The translations under genes were made by a program, and so were the position numbers. The notes below the pieces were generated by a model, which had not been told where the DNA came from, searched no databases, and worked only from the letters and a program-made list of their open reading frames with translations. This document shows positions 1 through 9,113 of a stretch of 64,000 nt of DNA, one piece after another. Numbering within the stretch: the stretch's first letter is position 1; each line of letters opens with the position of its first letter. The DNA is from Bacteroidales bacterium UBA4070 (GTDB lineage: Bacteria > Bacteroidota > Bacteroidia > Bacteroidales > VadinHA17): contig DFYY01000012.1 in NCBI GenBank assembly GCA_002383485.1, positions 101,717 to 165,716 on the forward strand, in the 5' to 3' direction.

Positions 1-360
1 GGAACACGCATAAGGAAAGTCCTTGGTGGTGCCATGAGACAGGCCGGGTATATAGCCTCAGCAGGCATCTATGCACTCAGGAACAACTTACTCCGTCTGA
101 CCGATGATCACAGGAACGCTGCCTCCCTGGCCGAGGCATTGAAGGAGTGCAGCATGACGGAGACGATACATTACGGCGGGACTAATATTGTTATCTTCAC
201 CCTTAAGCCTCCGGCAGCAGCATCAGACTTCCTCGAAAAGATCAGGCAGCACGGGATACTGGCTCTCAAAACGGGGGAGAGGAGCATAAGAATGGTCACC
301 CATCTGGATGTCAGCGACGAACAGATCAGGGAAGCATGTGAGATCCTGGCTACCCTTTGA
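1..360 (+). CDS. ltaE: low-specificity L-threonine aldolase, C-terminal part (5' end lies outside the window)
   Basis: Frame 1 is open from base 1. GGAMRQAGYIASAGIYAL...DDH..A..LAEAL...VTHLDV resembles the C-terminal region of PLP-dependent threonine aldolases. Confidence 0.75.
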   Translation, partial: GTRIRKVLGGAMRQAGYIASAGIYALRNNLLRLTDDHRNAASLAEALKECSMTETIHYGGTNIVIFTLKPPAAASDFLEKIRQHGILALKTGERSIRMVTHLDVSDEQIREACEILATL

Positions 361-718
361 AGGTAAAATAGATTGCTCCCAGAATGCAGAGGAAGGCAAA
401 AAGATGATTCAGCCTGAATGTCTCAGTCCGGAAGAAGAGGAGCGTAAATACAACAAAAACAGAGATTGATATCACCTCCTGGATGATCTTCAGTTCAACC
501 AGTGAGAAAGGTCCGCCGGTGCCGCGGTAGCCAATCCTGTTTGCCGGTACCTGGAAGAAATATTCAAACAGCGCTATTCCCCAACTGGCAAGAACTATGC
601 CGGCCAGACCCAGGAGTGCATTCTTCGACACGTTCTGATACTTGAGATGACCATACCAGGCAACCGTCATGAAGGAGTTGGAAACAATGAGCAGGAGGAT
701 TGACCAGAGACCTTTCAT
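350..718 (-). CDS. DMT-superfamily small membrane protein (DUF486-like)
   Basis: 122 aa with four hydrophobic segments. The N-terminus ...VSNSFMTVAWYGHLKY is typical of DUF486. It overlaps the upstream GNAT stop by 4 nt. Confidence 0.7.
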   Translation of the reverse strand: MKGLWSILLLIVSNSFMTVAWYGHLKYQNVSKNALLGLAGIVLASWGIALFEYFFQVPANRIGYRGTGGPFSLVELKIIQEVISISVFVVFTLLFFRTETFRLNHLFAFLCILGAIYFTFKG

Positions 719-1194
719 AAAACCTTGCGATAGACCAGTTTCGGATCTCCCGGGCCATAGAATTCGCGAAGCGTTGCCTCGAGTTCATAGCCGTTTTTCA
801 GGTAAAAATGACGGGTGGGTTCATACAGCGGTCTTCCCGAAGTCTCGATCCAGGCTATTTTGCCACCGACGGACCTGATACGGTCCTCGGTCTCGCGCAG
901 GATCACCGAGCCATAGTGCTTGCTGCGGTGTTCCTGCTGTATTGCCAGCCAGTATATGTCCCATGAGTGCACTGATGAGGGATTGGGGCCAAAATTGGCA
1001 AACCCGATCACCTCTCCGTTTTCAGTCAGCTTAATCCAATAGTATCCGCTCTTCTCTTCTCCGTGTTCAAGGGTCTCGTCAGCAAGCGACAGTGCAACTT
1101 CTATTTCAAAATCATAGAAGAACCCTGAAGAGGCCAGTATCTTTTCAAATGCAGGCCTGTCGGCCGGGGTTATTTCAAAGGAAATTTCAGGCAT
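715..1194 (-). CDS. GNAT family N-acetyltransferase
   Basis: 159 aa. A GNAT acetyl-CoA-binding-like core (WLAIQQEHRSKHYGSVIL) is followed by YLKNGYE. Confidence 0.8.
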   Translation of the reverse strand: MPEISFEITPADRPAFEKILASSGFFYDFEIEVALSLADETLEHGEEKSGYYWIKLTENGEVIGFANFGPNPSSVHSWDIYWLAIQQEHRSKHYGSVILRETEDRIRSVGGKIAWIETSGRPLYEPTRHFYLKNGYELEATLREFYGPGDPKLVYRKVL

Positions 1195-1207
1195 GGGAGG
1201 GCTGTTG

Positions 1208-2176
1208 TCACTTGTTTAAATCGTTGATGATATGGCTTATTATTTCGGAGTGCGAATATCCTGCATGGGTGGCTGCGGAGATGAATCCGCTGTCAGGAGA
1301 GATGCAGGGATTGGCATTGACTTCAAGCACATAAACGTTTTCATCTGCATCCACTCTCATATCCACGCGGGCATAACCCTTGAGTCCGAAAGTACTCCAG
1401 CAGGCGAGTACGGCATCCCTGATATTCCTGCTCAGTCTGTCGCTCAGGTCATCCGGGAAGTTACGCATGCTGTTGTCATACTGGAAGGTATCCTCCTCCC
1501 ACTTGGCCTTCCAGCTCACTATCCTGGGCATATCTTCAGGATACCCGTTGAAGGTCATCTCGGCTGGCGGAAGGACCTCGGGACCGTCAGGACCGGCCTT
1601 GACGCTTACATTGAACTCCCTGCCGTCTATGAAATCCTCTATAAACCAGTGGCGGTCATTCTTTTCCTTTACTATTTCAGGAACAGTGCCGTCAAACGTG
1701 AAGACTGACTCTTCGGTAATGCCGAGAGAGCCGTCTTCCCATACCGGTTTGAGGATATACTTCCTGCCCGGCACAAGCTGATCGGTCTCCGAGACTCTGT
1801 AGCCTCCGGCAACCGGAATGCCGTGTGCTTTCATTATCCTTCTGGCCAGCACCTTGCTGCCGGTGACAAAGGCAGCCTCCACCGGACAGCCGGTATATGG
1901 GATGTGGTGCATGTTCAGCAGGGCGGGTATGAAATAGAGTATCTCAGCCTTTTGGCCCACAGACTCAACAAGATTGAACACAAATTCATAACCTTCATCA
2001 GCTATGCCGGCTATCTCATTGAAGAAGTTTTCAGTTATGCCTCTCCGTTCAACCCTGTATCCGAGGGTCGTAAGGGTATTGTCGATAAAATTTACCTGGT
2101 CAAGGACATCGAGCTCGTCAGGAAGGGCATCTTCAGCCGGTTCATTGTAAATTACAAGGCACCTTTCGCTCTTCAT
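1208..2176 (-). CDS. ATP-grasp ligase, D-alanine--D-alanine ligase-like (paralog 2)
   Basis: 322 aa. Has a Ddl-like pre-ATP-grasp N-domain, an ILKPVWEDGSLGI ATP-grasp segment and a C-terminal YVLEVNANPCISP motif. Shares an ATGA start/stop overlap with the upstream gene. Confidence 0.8.
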   Translation of the reverse strand: MKSERCLVIYNEPAEDALPDELDVLDQVNFIDNTLTTLGYRVERRGITENFFNEIAGIADEGYEFVFNLVESVGQKAEILYFIPALLNMHHIPYTGCPVEAAFVTGSKVLARRIMKAHGIPVAGGYRVSETDQLVPGRKYILKPVWEDGSLGITEESVFTFDGTVPEIVKEKNDRHWFIEDFIDGREFNVSVKAGPDGPEVLPPAEMTFNGYPEDMPRIVSWKAKWEEDTFQYDNSMRNFPDDLSDRLSRNIRDAVLACWSTFGLKGYARVDMRVDADENVYVLEVNANPCISPDSGFISAATHAGYSHSEIISHIINDLNK

Positions 2177-3147
2177 GACAGTCCGTAGCGTTTCTTGGCA
2201 GAATCCATGATCATCTCCATGAGAGTGCAGTAATCCATGCTGTTAAGGCGTGACAGCATTGGCAGGTCAGAGTGCACCGGGTTCAGACCGGCAAGCGGAT
2301 TGGCCTCTATGAAGCACATCCGGCCGTGGCGGTCCGCTTTCATGTCAACGCGTCCTGCATCGACTGCCCCCAGTGCACGCCATGCTCCAAGGGCTACAGC
2401 ATCGCACTCACTGCGTAAATCTTCGTCGTAAACACTGTACTTAACGTAATTCTCGTAATTCTCCTTTACCTCCACCGAGTAGGGAAGGTTATCCCTGCAG
2501 ATGACCTCCATTCCACCTGTCACCTTCGCCTCTGCGCCATTGCCTGTAACTCCAACCGTGAATTCCCTGCCGGGAAGATATTCCTCTACCAGCACAGGCT
2601 GGTTGTAGGTTGTCAGCAGTTCCTGTACAAGTGCTACCAGTGATTCACGGTCACGGACAAGGCTCCTGGTGGTAATGCCCTTGCCGGTTCCTTCTGCAGC
2701 AGGCTTTACAAAAAGCGGAAATTCGAGGGTTGACAGATTGTCAAGATCATGCACTGAATTTGCCACGATGCCCGGGCATACCGGCACTCCGGCGGCAGCT
2801 ACGATGAGCCTTGTGAGGTATTTATTGAGAGAGACCCCCATAACAACCGGTCCGCTGAATACGTATGGAATCCTGTACTGGTCCAGCAGAGCCGGCACTA
2901 CGGACTCACGTCCGTCACCACAGAGTCCTTCGGCGATATTGAAGACCATGTCCCAGCGTTCACCGGCTGCCAGCTTTTCAACCAGCTGAAAGATATTCCC
3001 GATGCGTACTGTCTGGTAGCCCTGACGTATAAGCTCATTCTCAAGGGCGACCACTGTTTCCTCCTTGTCAAACTCAGCTGTCTCATCCATGGTATAACCG
3101 CGCTCGAGGTACCACGAGCGGAGGTCATACGTAAGTCCTATCTTCAT
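2173..3147 (-). CDS. ATP-grasp ligase, D-alanine--D-alanine ligase-like (paralog 1)
   Basis: 324 aa. Features are an MKIGLTYDLR-type N-terminus, LFVKPAAEGTGKGI, and FIEANPLAGLNP at the C-terminus. Confidence 0.8.
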   Translation of the reverse strand: MKIGLTYDLRSWYLERGYTMDETAEFDKEETVVALENELIRQGYQTVRIGNIFQLVEKLAAGERWDMVFNIAEGLCGDGRESVVPALLDQYRIPYVFSGPVVMGVSLNKYLTRLIVAAAGVPVCPGIVANSVHDLDNLSTLEFPLFVKPAAEGTGKGITTRSLVRDRESLVALVQELLTTYNQPVLVEEYLPGREFTVGVTGNGAEAKVTGGMEVICRDNLPYSVEVKENYENYVKYSVYDEDLRSECDAVALGAWRALGAVDAGRVDMKADRHGRMCFIEANPLAGLNPVHSDLPMLSRLNSMDYCTLMEMIMDSAKKRYGLS

Positions 3148-3154
3148 TCCTTAC

Positions 3155-4399
3155 CTACTTTTTGTTGGGGTAAGTGTAGCGGTTATTTTTATAGTTTCTC
3201 AGGACCCATTTTTCAGGGCCGCTTTCCACCACATAATGGGGCAGGATGGGTATCTTGCCGCCGCCACCGGGGGCGTCAACCACGAACTGCGGTACTGCAT
3301 AGCCGCTGGTATGGCCACGGAGGTTCTCTATAATATCAATACCCGTCTCAATTGTGGTTCTGAAGTGGCTTGAGCCCGGTATCAGGTCACACTGGTATAT
3401 GTAGTAAGGTCTTACGCGCACTGAGAGAAGCTTGTGCATGAGACTCTTCATGGTGGCCGGGTCATCATTTATACCCTTGAGCAGGACGGTCTGGCTTCCC
3501 AGCGGCATCCCTGCATCGGCAAGCATCTCGCATGCCCTGCGGGTCTCGGGTGTCATCTCATCAGGATGGGTGAAGTGAACGCTGAGGAAGAGCGGGTGGT
3601 ACCTGCGGAGCATGTTCACCAGCTGCGGTGTGATTCGCTGCGGCAGTACTGCCGGCACCTTGGTGCCTATCCTCAGTATCTCGATATGCTTTATGGCCCT
3701 CAGGCTGGAGAGCAGGTATTCCAGTTTGCTGTCATTCATTGTCAGCGGATCACCTCCGCTGATAATGACATCACGTACCTCGGTGTGTTCCCTGAGATAC
3801 TCGAATGCCAGTTCCCATTCTCCCCTGGTGAGATGACCCAGCTTCCCGACTGAATGGGAACGGGTGCAGTACCTGCAGTAGGAGGAGCAGAACTGTGTCA
3901 CTGTAAAAAGGGCCCTGTCCGGATAACGGTGTATGATCCCGGGAACCGGACTGCTGCCCATCTCATTCAGAGGGTCAGCCTTTTCGGCCTCGGTTACCAG
4001 CAGCTCATCACTGGTAGGAATCATGGTTCGACGCAGCGGTGACCATGGCTCTGAATCATAGATGAGCGACAGGTAGTAGGGGGTGATCCTGAGCGGCAGC
4101 CTGCCCTTCAGACTGTTGAGGGTATGTATCTCATCATCTGTCAGTGTCATGACACGAGACAATGCCTCAGCAGTGGTGAAAGAATTGCGCAGTTGCCAGC
4201 GCCAGTCATTCCAGGATTGTGAATTTGCAAGAGGGAAGTAGCGGCGTATGAATTCCGAACTCCGGTTGCTAACTAAACGATCGTGGGATCCGATCTGCGG
4301 GAAGATCATGGTACCCGCGCCAGGTTCTTCGTCAGAAGAACAACCCATGAGGCGGCTCTCAACACGAGCAGCCGTTGCCTCTTTTCTGTTAGCGTTCAT
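3155..4399 (-). CDS. kamA: KamA-family radical SAM aminomutase (lysine 2,3-aminomutase-like)
   Basis: Carries the CSSYCRYCTR (CxxxCxxC) radical SAM cluster motif, YIYQCDL..HFRT, and the VVDAPGGGGK PLP-lysine motif. The start is uncertain because internal Met codons exist. Confidence 0.85.
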   Translation of the reverse strand: MNANRKEATAARVESRLMGCSSDEEPGAGTMIFPQIGSHDRLVSNRSSEFIRRYFPLANSQSWNDWRWQLRNSFTTAEALSRVMTLTDDEIHTLNSLKGRLPLRITPYYLSLIYDSEPWSPLRRTMIPTSDELLVTEAEKADPLNEMGSSPVPGIIHRYPDRALFTVTQFCSSYCRYCTRSHSVGKLGHLTRGEWELAFEYLREHTEVRDVIISGGDPLTMNDSKLEYLLSSLRAIKHIEILRIGTKVPAVLPQRITPQLVNMLRRYHPLFLSVHFTHPDEMTPETRRACEMLADAGMPLGSQTVLLKGINDDPATMKSLMHKLLSVRVRPYYIYQCDLIPGSSHFRTTIETGIDIIENLRGHTSGYAVPQFVVDAPGGGGKIPILPHYVVESGPEKWVLRNYKNNRYTYPNKK

Positions 4400-4777
4400 A
4401 CTTCGGTAAAATGAATTACCTTTTTTTCTGGTTGTTAATTATTCGTTTTGGTTATTAAAATGTTTCATAAAATTTTCGCTAAGTTATTAATTGGTTAACC
4501 TGCGGTTTCTACTCAGGACAAAAGATATTAACATGCTAAAACTGCATTATAATATCTGGTTTTCAATTTCATAACCTGTCTGAACCTGAGTTATTCACAG
4601 CTTCTTTTCAGGTGCTGAAACTGATGCCCGTAATTTGAGGCGCAAACTTAAATCAAAATCTGACATACGGATATTTTTCAGCCATTATTTTCATGTTATT
4701 TTTAATCATCTGATCACGCTGCACGGCACATAACTGTGTATGTCCTGCATCTTCAGGCGTATTCATCACATAATCAA

Positions 4778-5101
4778 TCAGTTTATCCATTGTCGTCGTT
4801 GCTGCGTGCATCCTTGTATCTGAGCTGGCATAGTAAGGGGATTGGCCCGGTAATCGAGATCATACCTCCAGAAGACCGGGGTATGGTCACGCGTGATTAT
4901 GGGATGGAGGTACCTGTCGAAGATGCCGTTGCCGCCTTCCTTCTTTGCATTGGGCCTGTTTATGAGCTTCTCCTTATCATCAAACAGCTGCCTGACCTGG
5001 ATGTCAAATTCCTTTTCTGTCATAAATTCCGGGGATTGTTTCCGGAACAAATATAACGGATAACGCAAATGGTGGCGCGTGATTGTTTTAACCGCATTCA
5101 A
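4778..5101 (-). pseudogene. N-terminal remnant (~85 aa) of a GH130 beta-mannoside phosphorylase
   Basis: ...EGGNGIFDRYLHPIITRDHTPVFWRYDLDYRANPL matches the conserved N-terminus of GH130 mannosyl-glucose/GlcNAc phosphorylases. After that point similarity is lost and the ORF stops. Full-length enzymes are far longer than this 107-aa ORF. Confidence 0.55.
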
Positions 5102-5466: not shown

Positions 5467-6369
5467 TCAAATAAAGAAAAAGGCTACTCCCGCCACGCTG
5501 ATGATTGCTCCGGCAATCTCCACCGCAGTGATCTTTTCCTTGTAAATCCATGCCGCCGGGGCGAGGATCAGTACCGGAACTATTGCCATGATTGTTGATG
5601 CTATCCCGGCCTGTGTATGTTTTACAGACAGCAGAGAAAAGGATATCCCCAGGAACGGTCCGAAGAATGCTCCCAGCGTCAGGGCTTTCATTACAGGAGG
5701 ATTTTTTATTGCCGACGCCACATTGCCCCATCTGCGTAAGGCAGTGATTATGATGGAAAATCCTATTACCCCGGCGATGATCCTTATCTGGGTGGAGGCA
5801 AATGGATCATAGCCTTCCATCCCGTATTTGCTGAGCACTATGCCAAGCCCCTGCCCCAGGGCGCCGATGAATGCAAACAGCAGTCCCGCCGGAGCTATCT
5901 TGAATGACAGCCTTTCACCCCTTACCGGTTTATTGAAGATGGCAAGGCTGATCCCGAAGATTACTATGATCATCCCGGTTATCTGCATTATATTCAGCGA
6001 CTCCCCGAGGATGAAATAACCAAAGATGGCAGCCAGCGGTGGTGCAAGTGTCATTATGAGCATTGAGAACCGAGAGCCGATGAGCGGGTATGACCGGAAC
6101 AGGTAGTAATCTCCCAGCACCAGCCCGATCACTCCCGACAGTGCCAGCCAAAGCCAGTTGTGCATGCTTGCATCTACTGGCAGGAAGTGACCGCGTGAGA
6201 TGAGAGTATAGAATCCTATAAAGAAGAAGGCCAGGCTCAGCCTGAGTATGTTGACCGTGAGTGAGCCCACCTTCCGGCTGGCAGATTCAAACGCGAGTGC
6301 GGTGATAGTCCAGAAGATCGCCACTGCCAGAGCGGCAAATTCACCTGTATGGGAAGCAATGTAGTCCAT
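5467..6369 (-). CDS. EamA/DMT family transporter
   Basis: Ten hydrophobic segments forming two EamA-like halves. I chose the ATG start at 6369 (MDYIASH...). The ORF track extends it to a TTG at 6393. Confidence 0.8.
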   Translation of the reverse strand: MDYIASHTGEFAALAVAIFWTITALAFESASRKVGSLTVNILRLSLAFFFIGFYTLISRGHFLPVDASMHNWLWLALSGVIGLVLGDYYLFRSYPLIGSRFSMLIMTLAPPLAAIFGYFILGESLNIMQITGMIIVIFGISLAIFNKPVRGERLSFKIAPAGLLFAFIGALGQGLGIVLSKYGMEGYDPFASTQIRIIAGVIGFSIIITALRRWGNVASAIKNPPVMKALTLGAFFGPFLGISFSLLSVKHTQAGIASTIMAIVPVLILAPAAWIYKEKITAVEIAGAIISVAGVAFFFI

Positions 6370-6510
6370 GCCCGTAAAAAATATAAGCGACAAAAATAAA
6401 CAATCGCTGTTACCAACTTCTCAATCCTGCAGGTTTAACCGAAATTTTTTCTTCAGTGCATTTCAATTATTCAATTATGTCTATTTTTAATAAACCTAAA
6501 TCAAAACATC

Positions 6511-6999: not shown

Positions 7000-7788
7000 T
7001 TGTCGGAAAGAGAAGAGATACTGAAAGGATATAATCCTGTGGGCCTTGACGGCATCGCCTGTGTCAGGTATATGAACCGCATTGACACCAAATACCTCTT
7101 TTCAGCCGGCAAGCTGACGGACCTGCTCAGGAAGGTACGGCCATACTACAGTACCCTTGAGATAGCCGGACAGCGCGAGTTCTCCTACAAGACAGTTTAT
7201 TTCGATACCCCTGATCTGCTTTTCTATATCCAGCATGTTACCGGGAAGCTCAACCGTACCAAGGTAAGGATCAGAACCTACGAGTCAAACGGTCTTACAT
7301 TCCTGGAGGTGAAACAGAAGTCGAACAAGGGCCGCACCTCCAAGTCGCGCGTCGAAAAGGAACCCGGAGACATGAATCACGTCGAACAGTCAAGGGAATT
7401 TCTTGATGAATTGATCTCTCCCCGGGCAGTATCGCTCAAGCCGGTCATAAATACTGCCTTTACGCGCATCACACTGGTCAGTCTCGAAAGAGCAGAGAGG
7501 ATCACCATCGATTACAATATCGGATGGAACAACCTGAAAGGCGACAGCGTCAGGATGCCTTTTCTGGCTATTGCAGAGATCAAGAGCGGGAAGTCAACCT
7601 CCATGTCTCCGTTTTTTGCCAGGCTGAAGGAGCTTGGTGTACGCAGTACAGGATTCAGCAAGTATGCAACCGGAATGGCCCTTGTCAACAAGGCTCCCAG
7701 ACAGAATAATCTTAAACCGAAATTTTTACTCATTAACAGGATAAGGGATGAATATTACAGGAATGACGCTGCCCGTCAGCAGCACTGA
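7000..7788 (+). CDS. VTC domain-containing protein (polyphosphate-polymerase-like, triphosphate tunnel fold)
   Basis: NRIDTKY...YKTVYFDTPDLLFY...RTKVRIRTYE...FLEVKQK...AIAEIK matches the pattern of bacterial VTC (PF09359-type) proteins. A TTG start is assumed because there is no upstream in-frame ATG. Confidence 0.75.
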   Translation: MSEREEILKGYNPVGLDGIACVRYMNRIDTKYLFSAGKLTDLLRKVRPYYSTLEIAGQREFSYKTVYFDTPDLLFYIQHVTGKLNRTKVRIRTYESNGLTFLEVKQKSNKGRTSKSRVEKEPGDMNHVEQSREFLDELISPRAVSLKPVINTAFTRITLVSLERAERITIDYNIGWNNLKGDSVRMPFLAIAEIKSGKSTSMSPFFARLKELGVRSTGFSKYATGMALVNKAPRQNNLKPKFLLINRIRDEYYRNDAARQQH

Positions 7789-7804
7789 ATTGGCTAACCA
7801 GGAG

Positions 7805-8449
7805 ATGTTCAGCTTTTCGGGAATGCCGGAACTGCTGTTGCGGTTTGGCATCAATCTCGTGGTCATGCTCATCATTGTGCGCTGGCTTTATTATACCACT
7901 ACCAGGAGGAAAGACTACCTGTTCACCTACATGCTTATCTCCAGCGTGGTGTTCCTGCTCTGTTATCTCCTGGAGAGCGTCAGTTTGCAGATAGGATTTG
8001 CACTCGGTCTTTTTGCCATCTTCGGTATTATCAGGTACCGGACCAATCCCATGCCAATCAAGGAGATGACATATCTCTTCCTGGTCATCGGGATATCAGT
8101 TATAAATGCCCTTACAGCCGGTACAAGCATGATTGAAATAATCTTTGCCAATCTTGCTGTAATACTCATCACCCTGGGTCTGGAGAAGATTTGGCTCCTC
8201 AGACATGTCTCATCCAAGGCTATTGTCTACGAAAAGATCAATCTCATCGTGCCGGAAAAATATGATGAACTGATAGCTGACCTCCGGGAACGTACCGGGT
8301 TAAAAGAGATAAAGAAGGTTGAAATTGGTGCTATCAACTTCCTGAAGGATACCTGCAGGATGATTATTTATTATGAGGACAAGGGACGTTCAATCAACCT
8401 TGCTGACCAGAACGGATTCATAAAACCGGATGATAATGACGATGATTAA
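7805..8449 (+). CDS. DUF4956 domain membrane protein
   Basis: Has an N-terminal membrane part (LLRFGINLVVMLIIVRWLYY...) and a soluble C-terminus. This family is the usual neighbour of bacterial VTC genes. I chose the ATG at 7805 because the longer ORF from 7748 overlaps the VTC gene. Confidence 0.7.
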   Translation: MFSFSGMPELLLRFGINLVVMLIIVRWLYYTTTRRKDYLFTYMLISSVVFLLCYLLESVSLQIGFALGLFAIFGIIRYRTNPMPIKEMTYLFLVIGISVINALTAGTSMIEIIFANLAVILITLGLEKIWLLRHVSSKAIVYEKINLIVPEKYDELIADLRERTGLKEIKKVEIGAINFLKDTCRMIIYYEDKGRSINLADQNGFIKPDDNDDD

Positions 8450-9113
8450 AAGGGGAACGGTTATACTGTTTGCATTGCTGCTCTCCGCGATTGCGGCGGG
8501 GCAGACTACTGACTATGGGATATGGTATGAGGCGAAGGCTGACAAGAAGATATGGCAAGGACTACGGGCCGACTTTGAGACAAGCATCAGGACCAATGAG
8601 AATGCGCGTAACATAGAAAAGTTTTACTTCGAGCCGGGATTGAGATATAAGTTCAATGACTACTTCAATGCAGGCATTTATTACAGGTTCATCGGGCAGG
8701 AGGAGAAGGACGGCAAATACCATGCACGCCACCGCTGGTTCGCACAGATAAAGGCCTCAGCACCCTCCGTTGCGAGGTTCACCTTTGGTATCAGGTATCG
8801 TATTCAGCAGCAGTTCATGACCTACATCGAAGATCCGGAAGATGAAGATCCGCAATGGTACCAGAGGGTAAGGCTTGAACTTGACTATGATATCAGGGGG
8901 ATTCCCCTCAGGCCCTATGTGAAGACTGAGACGCAACTGCTGCTTTTCGATCCGAACGAATATACGGTTGATAAGTGGAGGACGATGTTCGGAGTAGAGT
9001 ACACCCTGAACAAGAAGCACACATTCGGGCTGGAGTATATCTATAACGACAGCCGGGTGACCAAACCCCCTTTTGAGAACCTGCTGGGTATTACCTATTC
9101 AGTCAGTCTGTAA
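8430..9113 (+). CDS. DUF2490-like outer-membrane beta-barrel protein
   Basis: Has a signal peptide (ILFALLLSAIAAGQ), alternating aromatic beta-strand patterning, and a C-terminal ...GITYSVSL. Confidence 0.6.
   Translation: MIMTMIKRGTVILFALLLSAIAAGQTTDYGIWYEAKADKKIWQGLRADFETSIRTNENARNIEKFYFEPGLRYKFNDYFNAGIYYRFIGQEEKDGKYHARHRWFAQIKASAPSVARFTFGIRYRIQQQFMTYIEDPEDEDPQWYQRVRLELDYDIRGIPLRPYVKTETQLLLFDPNEYTVDKWRTMFGVEYTLNKKHTFGLEYIYNDSRVTKPPFENLLGITYSVSL

Follow-up and report, generated by a model that had tools for sequence, protein, structure and literature searches.

The stretch analysed here, a 64-kb window (64,000 nucleotides) of contig DFYY01000012.1 of Bacteroidales bacterium UBA4070, carries a minus-strand operon of five genes. 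These encode an aminomutase of the KamA family, two ATP-grasp ligases with the fold of D-alanine–D-alanine ligase (Ddl), here called AG1 and AG2, a small GNAT N-acetyltransferase, and a small membrane protein of the DUF486/DMT_6 family (Table 1). Taken together, the evidence below indicates that the operon is probably a self-contained unit for the biosynthesis of a small amide compound derived from β-lysine. The window is the part of the source genome that was compared.

From KamA to DUF486 the spacings between the genes are 7, -4, 13 and -4 nt, the start of AG2 overlapping the stop of AG1 (ATGA) and the start of DUF486 overlapping the stop of the GNAT gene. This is exactly the packing that an earlier note on this DNA had described, as the list of open reading frames (ORFs) confirms. 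The convergent gene that it had placed beyond the end of the operon is also found, as a plus-strand ORF that overlaps the DUF486 gene, the last of the operon, by 11 nt. The GC content of the operon (0.49-0.56) shows no clear difference from that of neighbouring coding DNA.

With its pair of ATP-grasp ligases, its GNAT and its transporter, the operon resembles the microviridin genes mdnB/C/D/E, and it could be proposed that the enzymes act on a small precursor peptide, giving a ribosomally synthesised and post-translationally modified peptide of the microviridin kind. This proposal is barely credible. The gaps between the genes leave no space for a precursor gene, the conserved short ORFs upstream are only the C-terminus of a GH130 gene and frames across promoter DNA, and a search for precursor peptides near the cassettes was negative, no conserved short ORF with a Thr/Ser/Lys/Asp/Glu core being seen. 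Furthermore, the ligases have the Ddl fold and are not of the RimK-like graspetide type, and KamA enzymes require a free α-amino acid.

Conservation and fusion of the cassette genes

Related loci were gathered from three sources. A pattern scan of species-representative genomes gave 301 stretches with relatives of AG1, of which the best 80 were taken; all 80 are from uncultured Bacteroidales, and 71 have sufficient downstream sequence to be informative. KamA, AG1 and AG2 are colinear in 70 of these 71 loci. The GNAT gene follows in 50 (70%) and DUF486 in 43 (61%), with both present in 32 loci and neither in 10.

The second source was an exhaustive HMMER search of protein-cluster representatives at 50% identity (E <= 1e-30), which returned 491 clusters, many of them 650-730 residues long. 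Twenty-four of the representatives are fusions of AG1 and AG2 in the order of the operon. A single one is a fusion of KamA and AG1, and next in its locus come an MFS transporter and an AG2-like gene. The third source was a metagenome scan with distant AG1 relatives as seeds, which produced 80 additional loci; here there is one more KamA::AG1 fusion, together with six AG2::GNAT fusions. Every adjacent pair from KamA to GNAT (KamA::AG1, AG1::AG2 and AG2::GNAT) is fused somewhere.

Sufficient flanking sequence is available for 36 of the distant metagenome loci. The order KamA-AG1-AG2-GNAT is found in 21 of them, KamA-AG1-AG2 in six, KamA-AG1 in four and AG1-AG2-GNAT in one, and AG1 stands alone in the other four. 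The flanks of these loci contain 274 ORFs that fall into 239 clusters, and are therefore unrelated, so that the module travels independently of them. Because the genes are colinear both in the 70 Bacteroidales loci and in 21 distant loci with unrelated flanks, the five-gene arrangement is a real operon and not a product of chance.

The full order KamA, AG1, AG2, GNAT, with the two ligases either separate or fused, is present in a Myxococcota metagenome-assembled genome (MAG), a contig of another lineage, a Pirellulales MAG, an Oleidesulfovibrio-like contig and Desulfovibrio mangrovi, in whose complete genome (CP104208.1) it lies at about 3.558-3.564 Mb. A WOR-3 bacterium has KamA and AG1 only, followed by an esterase and DUF4126. 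A number of other genes recur at these loci. In six metagenome loci, D. mangrovi and Woeseia, a gene of the histone-deacetylase family lies directly after the cassette, frequently as a fusion with a GNAT-like domain at its N-terminus. An MFS-HEAT transporter follows KamA-AG1 in three loci, and two loci (L086 and L148) have an MFS gene inside the operon.

The core that is conserved consists of KamA and AG1, the partner linked most tightly to it, in most cases together with AG2; the GNAT and DUF486 genes are frequent accessories. The earlier note had treated all five genes as one set and had suggested looking for them in other phyla. The cassette does recur in Bacteroidales, Desulfovibrio, Pirellulales, Myxococcota and diverse metagenome lineages, and KamA, AG1 and AG2 hold together across phyla and in fusions; the GNAT and DUF486 genes, at 70% and 61% of the Bacteroidales loci, do not belong to the fixed set.

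Enzymes and membrane protein of the cassette

The KamA of the window contains both the FCSSYCRYCTR and the VVDAPGGGGK motifs. It matches the lysine 2,3-aminomutase (LAM) of Clostridium subterminale (PDB 2A5H, whose numbering is used here), its only relative with a known structure, with E = 3e-129 and about 53% identity. Both the pairwise alignment and an alignment of nine sequences, E. coli EpmB among them, show that C125/C129/C132, R134, D293, D330 and K337 are kept in the window protein. In the LAM structure, D293 and D330 bind the ε-ammonium group of the substrate and R134 its carboxylate. Glutamate 2,3-aminomutase has Lys and Asn in place of the Asp pair. The radical SAM motif CSSYCRYC and the pyridoxal phosphate-lysine motif VVDAPGGGGK had been pointed out from the sequence, along with two Asp residues thought to favour a basic substrate over glutamate; the former align with C125/C129/C132 and K337, and the latter fall on D293 and D330, which bears out that argument.

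In NCBIfam the protein scores 346 bits on the KamA family model TIGR00238 (cut-off 199) and thus belongs to that family. It lies below every function-specific cut-off, namely those for glutamate (TIGR04368, 424 against 650 bits) and arginine (TIGR04468, 376 against 600) aminomutases, EpmB (TIGR03821, 248 against 369) and AblA (TIGR03820, 470.7 against 525.4), AblA being the best-scoring equivalog. There is an N-terminal extension of about 50 residues, and the last 55 or so positions of the AblA model are absent.

Five other cassette KamAs were compared, from the Oleidesulfovibrio-like contig, the Pirellulales MAG, the Myxococcota MAG, the WOR-3 bacterium and one further lineage. All keep the CxxxCxxC cluster, R134, D293, D330 and K337, have N-terminal extensions, and score 447-489 bits on AblA, matching roughly the first 360 of its 417 positions. 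The idea that the cassette enzymes form a clade of their own was dropped, since across phyla they are 40-55% identical among themselves and 49-53% identical to the C. subterminale enzyme. They are best described, as far as these comparisons go, as LAM-type enzymes that share an architectural quirk (N-terminal extension, no C-terminal tail, sub-threshold AblA score) and are not demonstrably a separate clade.

Judged by its specificity residues, the window KamA is of the lysine 2,3-aminomutase type. An identity as glutamate or arginine 2,3-aminomutase was rejected, both specificity positions being Asp and both scores lying under their cut-offs. Grouping with EpmB, which the earlier note had named as a test, is not seen either: the protein shares only some 33% identity with E. 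coli EpmB, compared with about 53% with LAM, its EpmB score is well short of the cut-off, and EpmB has Glu at the D330 position.

This bears on the possibility that the cassette attaches β-lysine to a carboxylate or amine of a protein, a translation factor for instance, as EpmA/EpmB do on EF-P and RimK does on S6. Among the uses that bacteria make of KamA-family enzymes, the β-lysylation of EF-P is the best known, and the ATP-grasp enzymes RimK, LysX and TTL modify proteins. We nevertheless regard protein modification as very unlikely: the KamA is LAM-like and not EpmB-like, no efp, epmA or small carrier-protein gene was seen in or next to the operon at any locus examined, the ligases are of the Ddl type and not of the RimK/LysX type, and permeases encoded within the operon indicate a small molecule.

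The two ligases are 26% identical to each other (BLASTP). D-Ala-D-Ala ligases are the only matches of either in the PDB (E = 1e-20 for AG1 and 1e-15 for AG2), and public annotations name the ligases "D-alanine--D-alanine ligase", the aminomutase appearing as "KamA family" or "lysine 2,3-aminomutase". The best Ddl scores in NCBIfam are 131 bits for AG1 and 110 bits for AG2, about half of the cut-off of 243 bits, so that neither reaches the Ddl equivalog level. An AlphaFold2 model of AG1, built on 69 sequences, has a pLDDT of 94 and a pTM of 0.91, and its best structural matches are all Ddl, with TM-scores of 0.79-0.83 at 23-26% identity.

An alignment in which E. coli DdlB served as reference for 88 sequences of the AG1 type and 40 of the AG2 type shows that the equivalents of K97, K144, E180, K215, R255, D257, E270 and N272 are kept in both families. 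The D-Ala pocket has changed. In both ligases H63 is replaced by E; in AG1, L282 is D and Y216 falls in a gap, and in AG2, L282 is G, Y216 is W and G276 is C. Since neither family has lost the ATP-binding lysines, K215, R255 or the Mg ligands D257/E270/N272, AG1 and AG2 are probably active as ATP-grasp enzymes, and yet they do not look like Ddl. The new acidic residues, at the H63 equivalent of both ligases and the L282 equivalent of AG1 (in AG1 these are E73 and D294), might suit a cationic substrate. The idea that AG2 lacks an ammonium-binding acid was dropped, as the equivalences given by MAFFT and hhalign conflict.

Another type of fusion is seen in 19 of the cluster representatives (P0254 and P0265 among them), which contain two ATP-grasp halves, each with a better score on AG1 than on AG2. 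A further protein, P0356, is 980 residues long and joins leucine-rich repeats to a Ddl-like domain.

The GNAT has weak NCBIfam matches to RimI and AAC(6') at E <= 0.01, and none to AblB at that threshold. AblB proteins are about 270-290 residues long. An identity as an AblB-type β-lysine N-ε-acetyltransferase was rejected, given the length of 159 residues and the lack of an AblB match. The protein does match PDB 2R7H over its full length (E = 2e-31, about 40% identity). This is a structural-genomics GNAT from a bacterium of the Desulfovibrio group, deposited as a 'putative D-alanine N-acetyltransferase'. A copy 99% identical to it (L095, 8001-8531) lies on a contig with the order NtrC-type sigma-54 activator, KamA, Ddl-like, Ddl-like, GNAT. 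No support for the deposited D-alanine name was found, and the name may rest only on the Ddl annotation of the neighbouring genes, which are really the cassette ligases beside a lysine aminomutase. By gene order, the cassette of O. alaskensis G20 should be Dde_3041-3044, with Dde_3040 as the activator, and we take 2R7H to be Dde_3044, which is consistent with this order. Three genes downstream of the cassette with the 2R7H copy there is a SpoIIE gene, in agreement with a published gene table in which Dde_3047 is a Ser/Thr phosphatase (PMC8836040).

The deposited name and the fact that Ddl is the nearest known family to the ligases, by sequence and by fold, would fit a role in the cell wall, in which the cassette would make an alternative D-Ala- or β-lysine dipeptide for peptidoglycan or another envelope polymer, to be acetylated by the GNAT. 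Several observations make this quite improbable. The ligases score far under every Ddl/Van cut-off and their D-Ala-pocket positions are altered; genes for the wall, such as those for Mur ligases or racemases, do not recur beside the cassette; the tight link, gene fusions included, is to a lysine aminomutase; and the name of 2R7H appears to be based on gene context only.

Another suggestion is that the cassette carries out plain AblA/AblB chemistry and that the ligases are passengers. Aminomutase plus GNAT is the minimal known osmolyte pathway, and AblA is the top-scoring model for KamA. The suggestion is very improbable indeed, as the GNAT has 159 residues and no AblB match, KamA and GNAT are separated by the ligases in every locus, some lineages have the ligases fused to the one or the other, and KamA and AG1 are found without any GNAT.

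The DUF486 protein scores 138.9 bits on PF04342 over residues 7-120 (gathering cut-off 25) and is thus a member of DMT_6. Literature searches at the abstract level returned nothing on DUF486, the matches all concerning DUF4861 or DUF4867 through prefix matching. In 11 of the 43 Bacteroidales loci in which the gene directly follows the cassette there is no GNAT. In L161, from a distant metagenome lineage, DUF486 lies between AG2 and GNAT, the only such case among the distant loci. The association of DUF486 with the cassette therefore extends beyond Bacteroidales.

Upstream region and neighbouring genes

The earlier note had placed a 378-nt ORF-free stretch ahead of the operon. About 253 nt of this is indeed intergenic, and the remaining 125 nt or so belong to the remnant of a GH130 pseudogene. 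In 21 related loci the GH130 gene is intact, encodes 438 residues and has its end some 254 nt upstream of KamA. The window retains only residues ~38-104 (4829-5029) and ~379-434 (4668-4835) of it, with the stop codon at 4653-4655, and the two surviving segments imply an internal deletion of about 820 bp. A 107-aa ORF at 4778-5101 is part of this remnant.

Upstream regions from 22 close loci and from 28 that are more distant were aligned. Among related Bacteroidales loci, whose proteins are 66-94% identical, the intergenic region is almost as conserved as coding sequence. There is a conserved box TAAGTTTGCGCCTCAAA at 4634-4650, within which a TAnnTTTG-like element, TAAGTTTG, occupies 4643-4650; elements of this type are known from Bacteroidota promoters. 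A second box, TGTTAATATC / TGTTAATATCTTTTG, lies at 4524-4533, and the region contains the further conserved elements GTGAATAACT and TTTAATAACTTAGCG. A palindrome GGTAA-N6-TTACC at 4405-4420 ends 5 nt before the ATG, and in the more distant group it becomes GGTGAAAA/TTTTCATC, with both arms changed.

A riboswitch or leader RNA was considered for this region and rejected: Rfam gave nothing relevant upstream of KamA at E <= 1, and there is almost no predicted consensus structure, RNAalifold giving -4 to -6 kcal/mol and one short hairpin or palindrome. With so little predicted structure, the conserved blocks are probably promoter or operator sites acting at the level of DNA. The window shows no enrichment of a TGTTRATA box (it has 4 matches where 1.3 are expected, and 3 of 100 shuffles also reached 4), and a scan for sigma-70-type promoters and terminators gave no more than the shuffled controls. 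In the Desulfovibrio group and some other lineages, NtrC-type sigma-54 activators lie directly upstream of KamA; by Pfam, three of the four in Table 1 have a receiver domain and that of L092 has none. Nothing comparable was seen adjacent to the cassette of the window.

Upstream of the GH130 remnant, on the same strand, there is a full-length EamA/DMT transporter of 308 residues (5467-6393, minus strand), and 41 related loci have a homologue in the corresponding place. The gene may encode a second carrier tied to the cassette, or its position may reflect no more than synteny. Beyond it are three consecutive plus-strand genes (7000-9113) for a VTC-domain protein, a DUF4956 protein and a DUF2490 protein (outer-membrane β-barrel-like). 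Homologues of the VTC-domain and DUF4956 genes are found near the cassette in some related loci.

Table 1 Features of the window and of related loci. Positions without a locus label refer to the window; L-numbers are related loci.
Feature	Position	Strand	Size and basis
KamA-family aminomutase	3155-4399	minus	414 aa; Radical_SAM + LAM_C (Pfam)
AG1, Ddl-fold ATP-grasp ligase	2173-3147	minus	324 aa; Dala_Dala_lig_C (Pfam)
AG2, second Ddl-fold ATP-grasp ligase	1208-2176	minus	322 aa; Dala_Dala_lig_C (Pfam)
Small GNAT N-acetyltransferase	715-1194	minus	159 aa; Acetyltransf_1 (Pfam)
DUF486/DMT_6 small membrane protein	350-718	minus	122 aa; DMT_6 (Pfam), E = 8.5e-41
Threonine-aldolase/GntG-like PLP enzyme, C-terminal end	34-360	plus, convergent	Pfam + NCBIfam
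Intergenic region upstream of KamA, promoter/leader	4400-4652	minus	conserved blocks in aligned upstream regions
GH130 gene remnant (β-1,4-mannooligosaccharide phosphorylase family)	4653-5101	minus	homologue comparison
Histone-deacetylase-family genes	L177 7629-9386; L108 8451-10193; L178 5505-7001		after cassette, outside Bacteroidales
NtrC-type sigma-54 activators	L095 2874-4310; L177 1857-3293; L092 3892-5349; L133 2108-3550		directly upstream of KamA

Proposed pathway and predicted product

On the basis of these observations, we propose the following pathway. KamA, from its conserved catalytic and specificity residues, would convert L-lysine to β-lysine. AG1 would use this β-lysine directly, as one of the two partners in the ATP-dependent formation of an amide bond by way of an acyl-phosphate, a step suggested by the KamA::AG1 fusions and by the loci that contain only KamA and AG1. 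AG2, a divergent paralogue, would form a second amide bond on the product of AG1, as the AG1::AG2 fusions and the fixed gene order suggest, and the GNAT would acetylate a free amine that remains, in line with the AG2::GNAT fusions. DUF486, translationally coupled in the window, would transport either the product itself or one of its precursors across the inner membrane, its place being taken by MFS transporters in some distant relatives. The adjacent or GNAT-fused histone-deacetylase-family enzyme of other phyla suggests that the acetyl group can be removed. From these proposed steps the expected product is an N-acetylated pseudo-di- or tri-peptide built around β-lysine. The leading candidates for its role are that of a solute protecting against stress and that of a cationic metabolite for export.

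A number of observations weigh against this pathway. The KamA falls short of the AblA cut-off, matching model positions 3-359 of 417, and the cassette KamAs as a group lack the LAM C-terminal tail and are uniformly sub-threshold on AblA. The GNAT is missing from 30% of the Bacteroidales loci and DUF486 from 39%. AG1::AG2 and GNAT stand without an adjacent KamA in an Acidobacteriota MAG and in one further contig; because of these loci, and because AG1 stands alone in four of the 36 distant ones, the ligases may not be strictly tied to β-lysine. For the ligases, the equivalent of Ddl E15, in the N-terminal substrate subsite, differs between MAFFT and hhalign.

The presence together of two distinct ATP-dependent ligase activities recalls cyanophycin synthetase, and β-lysine, with two amines and one carboxylate, can branch or polymerise. 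On this model the ligases would alternate to build a β-lysine polyamide, either for nitrogen storage or as a cationic polymer, which the GNAT would cap, and the NtrC-type activators directly upstream in Desulfovibrio-like and other loci could be held to favour it. We consider such a polymer unlikely. Each ligase is a compact protein made up of one Ddl fold with its lid loops and has no primer-binding or extra domains, the associated membrane proteins are small-solute transporters (DMT with four transmembrane helices, or MFS), and no cyanophycinase-like hydrolase recurs near the examined loci. A closed active site of the Ddl type suits small substrates. This closed site and the small-solute carriers (DUF486 in 61% of the Bacteroidales loci, even where GNAT is absent, and MFS inside the operon in L086 and L148) speak for a small, membrane-crossing molecule as the product and against a polymer or protein target. 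In view of the fusion pattern, the lack of wall, efp and precursor genes, and the changed D-Ala pocket, all of the rival explanations are less likely than a cassette for a β-lysine amide.

The closest known systems each share a part of this arrangement. AblA and AblB make N-ε-acetyl-β-lysine, a compatible solute of methanogens, green sulfur bacteria and some Bacillota. The cassette resembles this pair in having a LAM-type KamA with the lysine-binding Asp pair and a GNAT later in the operon, but differs in the two Ddl-fold ligases that lie between them and are fused to KamA or GNAT in some lineages, in the much smaller family of its GNAT, and in a KamA that is below the cut-off and lacks the last 55 or so positions. 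EpmB/EpmA likewise use a KamA-family aminomutase to feed β-lysine to an ATP-dependent ligation, although there the ligase is a lysyl-tRNA synthetase paralogue and not an ATP-grasp enzyme, and the target is the protein EF-P. To our knowledge, neither the ablA/ablB nor the EpmB system uses ATP-grasp ligases.

With Ddl and VanA/VanG the cassette ligases have in common the three-domain ATP-grasp fold (TM-score about 0.8) and all of the ATP, Mg and transition-state residues, and the implied chemistry is the same, namely attack of an amine on an acyl-phosphate. They differ in being 23-26% identical, scoring about half the cut-off, having a changed pocket, and being partnered by a lysine aminomutase and not by cell-wall genes. 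Ngg, in which a GNAT and an ATP-grasp ligase form one fused protein, makes the N-acetylated dipeptide solute N-acetylglutaminylglutamine amide (NAGGN). A GNAT and an ATP-grasp enzyme cooperate there too, and relatives of the cassette contain AG2::GNAT fusions; however, the ligase of Ngg is from another branch of ATP-grasp enzymes and uses glutamine, there is no aminomutase, and the amidotransferase AsnO, which is needed there, is absent from the cassette. Carnosine synthase provides an example of an ATP-grasp enzyme that activates a β-amino acid.

The earlier note had read the operon as an uncharacterised pathway to an acylated or oligomerised β-amino-acid product. The comparisons support this reading, with the product standing as a prediction from sequence and the osmolyte as one of several roles. 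They also bear out its view that the pathway is not a described one: searches of the literature on aminomutases, ATP-grasp enzymes, Ddl, β-lysine and Desulfovibrio found no published account of such a cassette, and none describing it was found under the predicted G20 locus tags Dde_3040-3047. A Pelobacter genome paper and a paper on the Na+ riboswitch concern ordinary ablA/ablB, and a paper on the sigma-54 regulome of D. vulgaris does not mention the cassette genes. All of the enzyme families are thus known; it is their combination that is new, and presumably also the product.

It is quite possible that the product belongs to an undescribed class of metabolite. This would be a pseudo-tripeptide centred on β-lysine, made by two Ddl-derived ligases, reversibly acetylated on one amine (by the GNAT and, in several phyla, the deacetylase beside it), carried by DUF486 or MFS, and widespread in anaerobic Bacteroidota, Desulfobacterota, Planctomycetota, Myxococcota and others. 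If so, it might serve as a compatible or ammonia-stress solute, a secreted cationic peptide or a metal binder.

The cassette is common: species-representative genomes contain about 300 matches, the protein clusters number in the hundreds and come from several phyla, and its carriers are anaerobes of digesters, peat, sediments and soils. Its presence in cultured, genetically tractable relatives of Desulfovibrio makes the proposal directly testable. The fates of β-lysine in prokaryotes are few, namely the osmolyte N-acetyl-β-lysine, the modification of EF-P, lysine fermentation and a few antibiotics, and the cassette would add another. It would also give a function to many genes now annotated as D-alanine--D-alanine ligase, to the orphan structure 2R7H, and possibly to DUF486.

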